The translations under genes were made by a program, and so were the position numbers. The notes beneath the pieces were generated by a model that was given only the letters and a program-made list of their open reading frames with translations, was not told where the DNA came from and made no database searches. From Candidatus Peribacter riflensis (GTDB lineage: Bacteria; Patescibacteriota; Gracilibacteria; Peribacterales; Peribacteraceae), in NCBI GenBank assembly GCA_001430755.1, contig CP013062.1:900001-932000 (forward strand): 32,000 nt of DNA, given 5' to 3'. Below are positions 2,958-16,491 of this stretch, piece by piece (position 1 is the first letter of the stretch; the number at the start of each line of letters is the position of its first letter).

Positions 2958-3662
2958 CTAGTGCTTGCGATGGTAGAACATCGTGCCGCCGCGTGTCGTC
3001 TCGCCCATCTTAAGATTCCCGCGCTGCGAAAAGGACCGCCCGACTTCTTCTCTGCGCGGCACCTCACCCAGCGCCACCTTGAGCCGTTTGAACACCTCCG
3101 CATCCCCATCATCCCCTTCGTCGCCATCCGTGCCACGCTGCTCTGCCTCCCGACCGAGCACATCATTATAGGCGTCACGCAATCGATAGAGCCGATCTTT
3201 TTCTGAGAGAGAAAGCGCTCCGTTCTCCCTCACGGCAGATTCGGCATCAATGAGAAATGTCCTGCAGAGGGCAGCAAGCTCGAGAGATGAAAGGGAATAC
3301 CATTCTGATTCAGGGTGAGCTGTGGAAGGAGCTGCTCCCTCGACAGGGGAATCTGTAACTGCTGTTTCCGGACGCGATTCATCGAGGACGCGGGAAAATC
3401 GTCCGACGAGTGTGCCACGATCCCGCTCTCCATCCGAAGCATGGAGATAGGCCACCCGAAGCTCGCGGACCAGGATAAGGACGGACTCCGGCAAATTCTG
3501 CTTCTGTGCAAGCTCCACCTCCGCTTGCCCCAATACCTGTTCGCAGGTTTTCCGGACATAGCCGGCAAGCGTGGGGGCAGCGACCATACAGGTCTCTTGA
3601 ACGACTGCCACTCCGGGCGTTGTGCCGGCCAGAATCACGTGATGATTGGAATCCAGAGGCAT
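2958..3662 (-). CDS. Hypothetical protein with an acidic low-complexity segment
   Basis: 234-codon ATG-initiated ORF co-directional with the neighbouring genes. I recognise no family motif. Confidence 0.5.
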   Translation of the reverse strand: MPLDSNHHVILAGTTPGVAVVQETCMVAAPTLAGYVRKTCEQVLGQAEVELAQKQNLPESVLILVRELRVAYLHASDGERDRGTLVGRFSRVLDESRPETAVTDSPVEGAAPSTAHPESEWYSLSSLELAALCRTFLIDAESAVRENGALSLSEKDRLYRLRDAYNDVLGREAEQRGTDGDEGDDGDAEVFKRLKVALGEVPRREEVGRSFSQRGNLKMGETTRGGTMFYHRKH

Positions 3663-11641: not shown

Positions 11642-12722
11642 GTGGAAGATCTGCTGACAAAGCTTCGTGATCTCAAATCCGCGATCGCAACGGGGAAGGA
11701 CTCTCTTTGAGGCAAAAGGCCTTCCCAAGCGCATTCAGGACCTGACGGCGCAGACAAGTGCCCCGGATATCTGGAACGACCAGAAGCGCGCACAGGCCCT
11801 CTTCACCGAACTCAAGGTTCTCAAGAAACAATGGGAGCCGATGCAGAACATTGCCGATGAGGTGCAGGCACTGCTCGAGATGACTGAAGCCGCCTCGACG
11901 GAGGAACAGATCGCGCTCACGGAAGATGTGGAGCGGCTGGAAAAGGAATGGGCCGCCCTCGAAACGCAGCTTTACCTGAGCGGAGAATTCGACGCCTTCA
12001 ACTGCTACCTCACCGTGAGCGGCGGGGCGGGCGGCACCGAGGCGCAGGACTGGGCCGCCATGCTCATGCGTATGTACCTGCGATACTGCGAACGACAGAG
12101 GTGGAAGACGACCATTGTCGAGAAAACCGACGGGCAGGAGGCAGGCATTAAATCCGCCACCATCCACGTCGAGGGCGAATTCGCGTACGGCAATCTGAAG
12201 TGTGAAAAGGGAACGCACCGCCTCGTGCGCCTCTCGCCGTTCAACGCCAAGAGTCTGCGGCAGACCAGCTTCGCGCTCGTAGAAGTACTGCCGGAACTCC
12301 CGGAATCGACGGGGGTGGAGATCAATCCCTCGGATCTGCGGATCGACACCTACCGCAGCGGTGGAGCGGGCGGGCAGAACGTGAACAAAGTCGAGAGCGC
12401 CATCCGCATCACGCATCTTCCCACCGGCATCGTCGTCGCCTGCCAGAACGAGCGCAGCCAGCTCCAGAACCGCGCCCAGGCCATGAATATGTTGCGCGCC
12501 AAGCTGCTCGAGAAGGAACGGCTCGAACGGCAGGAGACAAAAGCGGAACTCAAGGGCGCCAGGCAGAGCGCCGACTTCGGTCAGCAGATCCGCAGTTACG
12601 TCCTGCATCCCTACCAGATGGTAAAGGACCTGCGCACAGATACCGAGACCAGCAATACCACAGGAGTGCTGGACGGCGACATCCAGCAATTCATTGATGC
12701 GGAGCTGAGACGAGGGAATTAA
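11642..12722 (+). CDS. prfB: Peptide chain release factor 2 with programmed +1 frameshift (frame 0: 11642-11707; frame +1: 11709-12722)
   Basis: SPF tripeptide, GGQ motif ([25 protein letters not shown]) and the slip site tct CTT TGA g at 11705-11711 preceded by GGGGAAGGA. The frame-0 peptide [22 protein letters not shown] starts at a GTG. Confidence 0.9.
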
Positions 12723-12804
12723 GAATGATGAATAAAGAATTATGAATGAAGAATAAGAAAGGCAAGCCGTGCATAATTCTTAATTTTTACTTCATAATTC
12801 TTCG

Positions 12805-12832
12805 AAAAAGCGCCCCTTGCGGAGCGCTTTCG
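12805..12832 (-). terminator. Intrinsic terminator of the histone-fold gene
   Basis: The minus strand reads AAAGCGCUCC-GCAA-GGGGCGCUUUUU. The one non-Watson-Crick pair is G-U on the minus strand but C-A on the plus strand, and the U-run follows only on the minus strand. Confidence 0.65.
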
Positions 12833-12852: not shown

Positions 12853-13023
12853 TTACAAGTCGCAGGCGCGGACCGTCTTGCGGCCGTTCTCCTGGGCACG
12901 CTTGGCGGCCTTCTTGAGAGCATCCTCGAGGTACTTGCTGGCGGCATCAGCGAGATCGCCGGCCGTCATCATGTCGGCAGCCTTGAGAAGCTCCTTGACC
13001 TTGGAAGCAACGACGTAGCTCAT
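12853..13023 (-). CDS. Bacterial histone-fold protein (DUF1931 / singlet histone, 56 aa)
   Basis: MSYVVASKVKELLKAADMMTAGDLADAASKYLEDALKKAAKRAQENGRKTVRACDL. The N-terminal VV.SKVKE and C-terminal NGRKTV...DL are the patterns I recall for DUF1931 and Bdellovibrio-type histones, and GRKT is shared with archaeal histones. It has its own terminator and a promoter-like upstream region. Confidence 0.7.
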   Translation of the reverse strand: MSYVVASKVKELLKAADMMTAGDLADAASKYLEDALKKAAKRAQENGRKTVRACDL

Positions 13024-13055
13024 GAAATAGGGGGGAAAAAATAAGGAACGGGAGG

Positions 13056-13085
13056 ATTCTACGCACCCCTGTTTCCCCGCTGCAA
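13056..13085 (-). promoter_or_regulatory. Candidate promoter of the histone-fold gene
   Basis: Minus strand: TTGCAG (13085-13080), 18-nt spacer, TAGAAT (13061-13056), then a ~30-nt pyrimidine-rich leader. Confidence 0.3.
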
Positions 13086-13268
13086 GTGCAAAAACACGTC
13101 TTTTGGGCAAATTCTCCTCAAAATTTCAATTGACCGGCATGGCCTTCCCCTGCGCAACATGTTCATGTTGATTGCGATAAACCTTGTCATATTGCCAAAT
13201 GGTACGCAAAATCGATGACCAACACACTTTTCCCTGTACCGGTCACTATCGCGGATAACCAAAGAATG

Positions 13269-14492: not shown

Positions 14493-14610
14493 GAGAGAAA
14501 TTACATACAGAATAGAGGGTCTCCGAGCGAAAAAACATGGCAGGTCAGGGAGCGACTGAGCGGCTGACACAGAAACCGAAAAATCTTCCCTCGCTGCGAG
14601 GAACGTCCGG

Positions 14611-14616
14611 TACAAT
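14611..14616 (+). promoter_or_regulatory. -10 box (TACAAT) 10 nt upstream of the mature tRNA-Ser 5' end
   Basis: tacaatcggga is almost identical to tataatcggga at 14769-14779. Confidence 0.35.
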
Positions 14617-14626
14617 CGGGATGCGT

Positions 14627-14717
14627 GGAGGGATGGCCGAGTGGTTGAAGGCGCACGACTCGAAATCGTGTAGGCCCCCAAAGGGTCTCGAGGGTTCGAA
14701 TCCCTCTCCCTCCGCCA
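14627..14717 (+). tRNA. tRNA-Ser, anticodon CGA, long variable arm, CCA encoded
   Basis: GGAGGGA acceptor stem pairs with TCCCTCC. Anticodon stem CACGA/TCGTG with loop CT-CGA-AA. T-arm GGTTCGAATCC. The 3' end is GCCA. Confidence 0.95.
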
Positions 14718-14746
14718 GTCTGCACCCCGCCGTACGAGACGAACGC

Positions 14747-14774
14747 ATGACAGTGTGTCGATGCCCTGTATAAT
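14747..14774 (+). promoter_or_regulatory. Sigma70-type promoter of the SGNH-like / carbamoyltransferase operon
   Basis: ATGACA (14747-14752), 16-nt spacer, TATAAT (14769-14774). The ATG at 14785 is 10 nt downstream of the -10 box. Confidence 0.45.
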
Positions 14775-14784
14775 CGGGAGCAAC

Positions 14785-16491
14785 ATGCCCGAAGACCTTC
14801 CGATTCAACACAGACACCGCACTGCCCTTTTTCTGAACCGCGCACAGAACGCCGCGACCCGCGGGCCAGCCGTCACCGATCTCTCGGCGACACTCCTGCC
14901 AAGCGACATCTGCCTTGTCGAAACCACCTTTCGCATCACGCCACAGAAGAAGCCGGCTGCGCGCGCACCCCTTCCCCTGCGTTCCCGTGATCCCCAGAGC
15001 ATTCTGCAGTACATCGCCCGACGCGCGTGGGCGCACCCGCAAACGAAAAAATCCGTGCAGAACGTGGCGCCTGCCGCTGTGCAATCCCTCAAGCCGCCTG
15101 CCGCTCCCCCGTCGCTCCCCCGCACGTGGGTGCGGACCAGCATCGGCAAAGCAGAGACGAAACCCGCCACGCAGCCAGCCCGAAAGAAACCCGCCCCCCG
15201 ATCCTGGAAACGGCGCTGCGCCACTGGATGCACCATCGCGCTCCTCAGCGCCGTCACGCTGGAGGGCGGATCGTTCGCGGCCTACTGGGCACTCACCGGT
15301 AGCCCGCTCTCGTTTGGGCAGGCAGCCGAAGAGCAGCAACGTATAGCCGCCGAAGCCATGGTGACGGACCCCAACCTTCTCGCGAGCGGAGGGGATGGAA
15401 AATTATCACAGCTCATCGTCCATCCGTACATGGGCTACACGCGCAAGATCGACCACGTCAATAACGTCCCGGGGCAGGATTACCTCCTCGGCCTCAAGCC
15501 GCTCATCGCCGCCTCGCCCGGAACAGCGATCATCGGCATTTTCGGAGGTTCCGTCGCGGAACAATTCTCCCAGGCGGGGAGCGGCGTCCTGAAACACCTG
15601 CTCTCGCAGGATCCGCGCTTCGCCGGCAAAGACCTGGTGATCTTCACCGCGGCAATCGGCGGCTTCAAACAGCCGCAGCAACTCATGTCGCTCAACTACC
15701 TCCTCTCACTCGGCCAGCACTTCGATGCCATCGTCAACATCGACGGGTTCAATGAAGTTGCGGGGCCGTCCGTTTCAAACATCCCGAAGAATGTCTCACC
15801 TTACTACCCGAGCGGCTGGTACCACCTCGCGGGGCGGCTGCCCGATACGCGAGTGCTGGAACACATCGGTGCCGTGGCCTACAGCCGCAAGCGCCGCAAA
15901 GATGCCGCCAGCCTGATGCTCTCCTCCACGCCTCTCGGCCACAGCACAACGGCACAGTTCCTCTGGAAAGGATGGGACGGCATGCTCGCCTCCCGCGTGG
16001 CGGAATCTGAGCTGGCCCTGCTGGAGCAGCCGTCCGCCCAAGTGGATGACACGCTGCAGCGCGGTCTGCCCTACGACTACCGCGGCGACGAACAGCTGCT
16101 CGCCGATCTCGTGGAGCAGTGGAAGCGCAGCTCCCTCCTCATGCATGGGATTGCGAAGGCGGAGGGCATCCCCTACTTCCACTTCCTGCAACCCAATCAG
16201 TATGTTCCCGACACCAAGCTGTTCTCCGCCACCGAACGAAGGACCGCACTCAACGTCGAAAGCCCCTACCGTCGATGGGTCATGCAGGGGTATCCGATCC
16301 TCCGGGAAGCAGGAAAGGATCTGCAGAAACAGGGTGTGGATTTCCACGACCTGACCGGGCTCTATGCCCGGGTGCCCGAAACGATCTACAAGGACGATTG
16401 TTGCCACGTGAACACCCTGGGCAACGCCATCCTCGGCCAGATCGTCGTGGATGCCATCCTCGGTGATCGCAACCGTCTGGCACGTCTCTGA
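14785..16491 (+). CDS. Membrane-anchored SGNH/DltD-like putative esterase or acyltransferase with a basic, disordered N-terminus
   Basis: About 150 aa rich in Pro/Ala/Lys/Arg, one TM segment (CTIALLSAVTL), then a large domain ending in DDCCHVNTLGNAILG, which resembles SGNH block V (DxxH). ATG at 14785 is chosen because the promoter overlaps the GTG at 14755. Confidence 0.6.
   Translation: MPEDLPIQHRHRTALFLNRAQNAATRGPAVTDLSATLLPSDICLVETTFRITPQKKPAARAPLPLRSRDPQSILQYIARRAWAHPQTKKSVQNVAPAAVQSLKPPAAPPSLPRTWVRTSIGKAETKPATQPARKKPAPRSWKRRCATGCTIALLSAVTLEGGSFAAYWALTGSPLSFGQAAEEQQRIAAEAMVTDPNLLASGGDGKLSQLIVHPYMGYTRKIDHVNNVPGQDYLLGLKPLIAASPGTAIIGIFGGSVAEQFSQAGSGVLKHLLSQDPRFAGKDLVIFTAAIGGFKQPQQLMSLNYLLSLGQHFDAIVNIDGFNEVAGPSVSNIPKNVSPYYPSGWYHLAGRLPDTRVLEHIGAVAYSRKRRKDAASLMLSSTPLGHSTTAQFLWKGWDGMLASRVAESELALLEQPSAQVDDTLQRGLPYDYRGDEQLLADLVEQWKRSSLLMHGIAKAEGIPYFHFLQPNQYVPDTKLFSATERRTALNVESPYRRWVMQGYPILREAGKDLQKQGVDFHDLTGLYARVPETIYKDDCCHVNTLGNAILGQIVVDAILGDRNRLARL

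Follow-up and report, generated by a model that had tools for sequence, protein, structure and literature searches.

To our knowledge, Bdellovibrio and Leptospira are the only bacteria in which chromatin built on histones has been demonstrated. The CPR constitute a large, uncultured share of bacterial diversity with tiny genomes, and we know of no study of their nucleoid proteins. Among described histones, the alpha3-truncated group is defined by an alpha3 helix of 3-4 residues and an alpha2 helix shorter than that of nucleosomal histones, with an RxTxxxxD motif that structures loop L2 (Schwab et al. 2024). Face-to-face (FtF) histones are defined by a ring (torus-shaped) homotetramer, and some 50-60 bp of DNA is wrapped on it; in the Haloferax FtF histone D4GZE0 the conserved residues are R41, N45, R47, T49 and D54, of which R41 touches the C-terminal carboxylate and N45 touches R47 of the opposite dimer (Schwab et al. 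2024). Bacterial dimers of the HBb type are without the FtF Arg and Asn (logo positions R48 and N52), and an RKT motif with the lysine is typical of nucleosomal and HBb-type histones but not strongly conserved in FtF (Schwab et al. 2024). For HBb itself (Bd0055 of Bdellovibrio bacteriovorus; 8FVX, 8CMP, 9EZZ) no tetramer is predicted, and it bends or coats DNA. Crystal structures of the family with DNA exist for HLp of Leptospira perolatii (9QT0, 9QT1, 9QT2; Nat Commun 2025, PMC12701072), in which R49, N53 and R55 are the residues conserved in tetrameric bacterial FtF histones and for which the DNA-touching residues are given (PMC12701072).

The locus analysed here has a prior record. Supplementary Table 1 of Hocher et al. 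2023 (PMC10627809) lists an identical 56-aa singlet histone from Ca. Peribacter riflensis (ALM10226.1, GCA_001430755.1), the same sequence from Ca. Peribacter sp. UBA1555 and other Peregrinibacteria entries, and the bacterial alignment behind Fig. 1c of that paper also contains it. Because of this identical entry, the gene is already catalogued, although without discussion or characterisation, and no discovery is claimed for the gene as such. The CPR singlets of the same table include Peregrinibacteria CG22 (57 aa, RGT for RKT) and Patescibacteria group bacterium UBA6539 (64 aa; PMC10627809), hence CPR histone-fold genes extend beyond Peribacteria. The main texts of the key bacterial-histone papers mention neither CPR nor Patescibacteria nor Peregrinibacteria, and a literature search found no paper text that pairs Patescibacteria, CPR or Peribacteria with bacterial histones, only supplementary tables. 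New here are the assignment to FtF, the synteny, the conservation of the promoter and the fused doublets, and the value of the analysis lies in the subfamily assignment and its comparative context, namely a CPR host, a class-wide fixed locus and doublet derivatives.

The window, by which we mean the whole stretch of 32,000 nucleotides that was analysed in the genome of Ca. Peribacter riflensis, an uncultured bacterium from groundwater, contains the histone gene as follows:

12853..13023, minus strand: histone gene of 56 codons plus TAA, based on the ORF, 119 homologues, AF2 and third-position variation.

The ORF runs on the minus strand from 13023 to 12853, with ATG at 13023..13021 and the stop TAA at 12855..12853, and its product is MSYVVASKVKELLKAADMMTAGDLADAASKYLEDALKKAAKRAQENGRKTVRACDL; the first-pass annotation had read the same 56-aa sequence from the internal ATG at these positions. 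A search among 5.8 billion proteins found 119 homologues, most of them exactly 56 aa, and those with a name belong to Candidatus Peribacteraceae or Peregrinibacteria. The coding sequence varies in 33 columns between close relatives, and 24 of these are third codon positions. Identity to the related locus L007 is 92.7% for the histone gene together with ~135 nt upstream, against 83% for the neighbouring prfB. MSYVVAS is the N-terminus of all Peribacteria singlets except one (L036, MHFTVSS). Judged by this conservation, 12853-13023 is a genuine, strongly conserved gene rather than a chance ORF, and the data support a monocistronic gene under strong selection.

The signals around the gene, which the first-pass annotation had already credited with its own promoter and terminator, are:

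13080..13085, minus strand: -35 hexamer TTGCAG, from a pattern search and class-wide conservation.
13056..13061, minus strand: -10 hexamer TAGAAT, 18 nt past the -35 hexamer and invariant among close relatives.
13024..13049, minus strand: inferred 5' leader of ~26 nt, C/T-rich, with the start at G13049, 7 nt past the -10 hexamer.
13090..13104, minus strand: A-tract/T-tract AAAAGACGTGTTTTT, just upstream of the -35 hexamer and conserved in close relatives.
13125..13133, minus strand: palindromic CAATTG box TCAATTGAA, ~100 nt upstream of the ATG and ~45 nt upstream of the -35 hexamer.
12805..12830, minus strand: intrinsic terminator, a GCAA-loop hairpin with a 10-bp stem before a U run (inverted repeat I5).

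Both signals are borne out by comparison and folding. In 34 of 35 Peribacteria loci the upstream region carries cTTGCrN, a spacer of 16-18 nt and a -10 hexamer that reads TAGAAT or nearly so and ends 29-36 nt before the ATG, and the histone promoter is the sole match to TTGCRN-N16-18-TANAAT in the 32 kb window. The terminator hairpin, AAAGCGCUCC-GCAA-GGGGCGCUUU at 12830..12807 followed by the U run, has a folding energy of -24.4 kcal/mol (z = -3.66), which 0 of 200 shuffles equalled, and its stem shows compensatory changes from GCGC to GUGC/GCAC in four related genomes (L007-L010). A consensus promoter and terminator scanner detected neither signal; both emerged from alignments, folding and a pattern search. 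The A-tract/T-tract at 13090..13104 resembles an UP element. The CAATTG box, which may be a regulator binding site, occurs once in the window, and at least one match turned up in 41 of 100 shuffles, so its occurrence there is within chance; reading the upstream sequences by eye placed a CAATTG-like motif at the same distance in most Peribacteria loci. High expression of the gene is plausible.

The leader is nearly invariant among the six sequences compared and pyrimidine-rich in all loci of the class-wide comparison. It holds no Shine-Dalgarno sequence, and Rfam found nothing in it, the sole match in the window being a tRNA. The roughly 14 well-supported starts that were inspected in the window (for example 16927, 4613, 21240, 3662, 7161 and 11642) also are without a Shine-Dalgarno sequence, and many such starts are instead preceded, at a distance of 10-25 nt, by pyrimidine-rich TTTCC or CTCC blocks. 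The absence from the histone leader is therefore characteristic of the lineage rather than peculiar to this gene.

The position of the promoter bears on the length of the product, since a longer in-frame version of 85 aa opens at TTG 13110 and would add an N-terminal domain or tail. The first-pass annotation, which took the short form as the product, had named this longer form, with a different fold, as one outcome that would count against it. We give the 85-aa protein next to no chance of being the true product, even though its frame is open and some gene callers report extended forms (P0001 and P0004). In the 80 genome loci that were read, stops at anything from 3 to 179 codons away close the frame ahead of the ATG, and no N-terminal extension is conserved at the protein level across relatives; the likeness that the extension does have among close relatives is DNA-level conservation of promoter and leader. 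The TTG moreover lies upstream of the -35 hexamer and would fall outside the transcript, because the conserved -35/-10 pair (13085..13056) is downstream of it. These observations lead to a product of 56 aa, in line with the conserved length of the relatives, and the longer form is rejected.

An AF2 model built from a 99-sequence alignment (pLDDT 87) has a histone fold, with the elements placed as follows:

Residues of the 56-aa chain, predicted elements: alpha1 6-15; loop L1 16-23; alpha2 24-45; loop L2 46-52; truncated alpha3 53-55.

Helix alpha2 thus spans 22 residues and alpha3 only three, and the chain stops at residue 56. The best Foldseek matches to the model are all histones: HLp (9QT0) aligns at TM 0.96 and rmsd 0.7 Å over all 56 residues, HTkC of Thermococcus kodakarensis (9F2C) at TM 0.91 and HBb at TM 0.88. 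Searched against the PDB with phmmer, the sequence gave HLp at E 1.4e-6, HBb at 1.3e-5 and HTkC at 8.9e-5, and the family profile gave the same three at 2.4e-17, 2.7e-14 and 2e-13. Nucleosomal histones score against the family profile at E 1e-3 to 1e-6 only (HMfA 1e-3). The most similar solved structure, by structure and by profile, is therefore Leptospira HLp. The histone fold, which had been put forward for checking by structure prediction, is confirmed in so far as the AF2 prediction and the sequence and profile matches to HLp, HBb and HTkC agree.

The standard domain models recognise the protein poorly. As a single sequence it reaches 19.4 bits for Pfam CBFD_NFYB_HMF (cut-off 21.4), 15.7 bits for Pfam DUF1931 (PF09123; E 0.018, cut-off 21.8), where the match spans only profile positions 18-53 of 138, and 19 bits for NCBIfam archaea_histone (cut-off 50). 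No precomputed Pfam domain is present on any of the 119 homologues, and these scores are probably the reason for the 'hypothetical protein' labels at NCBI. The first-pass annotation had called the gene a 'DUF1931-type' bacterial histone: the histone part stands, by fold and profile, whereas the DUF1931 label is loose. The pseudodimers of that family (Aquifex Aq328, 1R4V; Thermus, 1WWI) share a distant histone-fold kinship with the protein, as the weak Pfam match reflects, but they have two folds per chain and are without DNA-binding residues, whereas the present protein is a 56-aa singlet that has them, and its score lies below the gathering threshold. The correct family is the alpha3-truncated histones, not the Aq328-like pseudodimers: the chain combines a histone fold, a 3-residue alpha3 and the RxTxxxxD motif (R48, T50, D55). 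Nucleosomal archaeal histones of the HMfB type differ from it in a full-length alpha3 of ~10 residues that can enter a four-helix bundle, and the corresponding scores are below cut-off.

Within the alpha3-truncated histones, FtF and DNA-contact positions were transferred through the phmmer alignment with HLp and the published residue numbers. Nine residues (V5, K10, R42, N46, G47, R48, K49, T50 and D55) are invariant in the 99 family members, among them the FtF Arg and Asn, R42 and N46, at whose positions HBb has Ser and Asp. A single residue follows D55 before the C-terminus, just as in HLp and D4GZE0. Eight of the nine HLp DNA-contact residues are kept (A6, S7, K8, K10, K14, T20, G22 and T50); at the ninth, Lys49 replaces Thr. 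With HLp the protein thus has in common the alpha3-truncated fold, the tetramer residues R, N and R, the RD clamp, the DNA-contact set and a C-terminus one residue past the Asp. Identity to HLp is only 39%, with Lys49 for Thr56, and the HLp interface residues S52 and T61 correspond to E45 and C54 here; the tetramer and the DNA wrapping belong to HLp, whereas the present protein is known from its sequence and a single-chain model. With the archaeal FtF histones (HTkC, Haloferax D4GZE0 and the DPANN proteins described below) it shares a tail-less chain of 55-59 aa and the R/N/R/T/D signature, and the absence of a tail sets it apart from most bacterial histones; unlike the archaeal proteins, it resides in a bacterium. 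Since R42, N46, R48, T50 and D55 are accompanied by an HLp-like C-terminus and DNA-contact set, and HBb has Ser and Asp at the first two positions, we file the protein, on the basis of its residues, as an alpha3 histone with an FtF signature. The signature is indicative but insufficient, because HTkC makes tetramers without the Asn.

An FtF rather than an HBb signature makes tetramer wrapping, not end-on coating or simple bending, the expected mode of DNA binding. We consider it probable that the protein is a histone of the FtF subfamily whose tetramers would wrap ~60 bp of DNA, and that it would be an abundant nucleoid protein. By analogy with HLp and HTkC, two chains would form a handshake dimer and two dimers would meet face to face in a ring-shaped tetramer, held by predicted contacts of R42 with the C-terminal carboxylate of L56 and of N46 with R48 of the opposite dimer. 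Some 60 bp of DNA would wrap around the ring along its positively charged rim, without sequence preference, as with Leptospira HLp. Transcription would cover this gene alone, running from a strong sigma-70-type promoter that is conserved class-wide to the gene's own terminator, and promoter and synteny suggest that the product is probably an abundant nucleoid protein of Peribacteria. A compact, tail-less FtF histone of 56 aa is directly expressible and testable.

A bacterial dimer histone of the HBb kind, which would act on DNA as a dimer, by bending or coating it, and would form no wrapping tetramer, would account for part of the same evidence. HBb is a close match in sequence, profile and fold and shares the RKT..D motif and the lysines on alpha1; Schwab et al. 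2024 list an RKT motif with the lysine (here Lys49) and alpha1 lysines (here K8, K10 and K14) for bacterial dimers. We nevertheless regard this alternative as unlikely, given that bacterial dimers are without the dimer-dimer Arg and Asn, both of which are present and invariant here, and that HLp, a proven tetramer, tops both the structure and the profile searches. Still less probable, in our estimate, is a histone-fold protein that serves not in general packaging but as a specific regulator or a protein-binding adaptor. Such a role has been proposed for the DUF1931 pseudodimers without DNA-binding residues, to which the protein has its weak match, and not every prokaryotic histone-fold protein need be a global organiser (Schwab et al. 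2024). The present protein is a singlet and not a pseudodimer, keeps nearly all of the HLp DNA contacts, is basic (pI 9.2, net charge ~+2.5, 6 kDa), scores below the DUF1931 threshold and is preceded by a strong and conserved promoter, all of which speaks against that role and leaves the wrapping FtF tetramer as the preferred reading.

The closest proteins outside Peribacteria are tail-less 58-aa histones of DPANN-type archaea (Iainarchaeum, Micrarchaeota) at 52-61% identity, followed in similarity by tailed versions in Kofleriaceae and Planctomycetota. A neighbour-joining (NJ) tree with 100 bootstraps groups the Peribacteria singlets with the halves of the Peribacteria doublets described below. 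The tree does not decide between archaeal and bacterial FtF histones as the sister of this clade (34% support), hence a transfer between domains is not established; transfer from or to DPANN has no support in this tree beyond raw similarity.

The locus is fixed across the class. In 28 of 35 species-level Peribacteria loci the histone gene is convergent with prfB directly downstream, in five further loci prfB lies within 3 kb (<=3 kb) of it, and two genes of unknown function adjoining prfB are also conserved across Peribacteria loci. The genes of the window include trmD, pyruvate:ferredoxin oxidoreductase, infC, prfB, an amino-acid permease, tRNA-Ser, a carbamoyltransferase and an M50 peptidase. 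The GC content of the window is ~59-60%; that published for Ca. Peribacter riflensis is 58.5%. Given these housekeeping neighbours, and with two distant relatives (47% and 38% identity) as the only ones on viral contigs, a phage origin was rejected. tblastn with E. coli HupA (HU) gave no match in 540 kb of loci, which cover only a small part of any one genome.

The fixed locus, the conserved strong promoter and the class-wide presence make the protein a good candidate for the main DNA-packaging protein. A wider proposal would be that the Peribacteria, ultra-small members of the CPR, package their 1.25 Mb genome mainly with an archaeal-style, tail-less FtF histone that has been passed down vertically at a single locus from the class ancestor onwards; we put this forward tentatively, as a possibility that we ourselves hold in some doubt. 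If true, the CPR would join Bdellovibrionota and Leptospirales as a third bacterial lineage with chromatin based on histones, and gene exchange with co-resident DPANN archaea would be raised as a question.

Six Peribacteria species have, in place of the 56-aa histone, an asymmetric doublet of ~119 aa with two alpha3 folds joined by a linker of ~7 residues (loci L033, L039, L040, L042, L057 and L058, with the match near 3001 in most; proteins P0120-P0124). Its first half has Ala for R42 and Asp for G47 (KAAQANDRKTV), and its second half retains KRAxANGRKTV. In the tree the two halves group with Peribacteria singlets of the L021/L029 type at 69% bootstrap, a placement that suggests tandem duplication and in-place fusion as the origin of the doublets. 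Pfam DUF1931 gives no match to the doublets as doublets, and P0120-type doublets appear to be a separate event. An AF2 model of the natural doublet P0122, made without an alignment, had pLDDT 53, too low to be of use. If the proposed fusion is true, the first half without R42 would be a natural experiment, within one subclade, in the control of histone oligomerisation.

A few further features of the window were recorded alongside the histone gene. The neighbouring prfB (release factor 2; 11642-12722, plus strand) has a classical programmed +1 frameshift with its site at 11705-11711: translation opens at GTG 11642, the last of the first 22 codons is CTT, the next triplet in frame is TGA at 11708, and after the shift GAG 11709 is read (CTT TGA G). 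The purine-rich GGGGAAGGA lies just upstream of the frameshift site, and the ORF list has only the downstream frame of 351 aa. Between the prfB stop and the histone terminator, 12716-12803 forms a spacer of 83 nt with 28% GC (against ~60% for the genome), built from direct and inverted AAGAATTATGAA-like units with 29-nt arms that are 79% complementary. The motif is absent elsewhere in the window, and nothing similar follows the terminator in the aligned part of L007-L010; the spacer could be a bidirectional extension of the terminator or a small inserted element. A tRNA-Ser(CGA) gene is located at 14627-14717 on the plus strand and is crossed on both strands by long spurious ORFs, for example ORF 14545..15339 and the 505-aa 'permease' ORF in its N-terminal part; the start of the permease is probably near the methionine of MSPQLQ.
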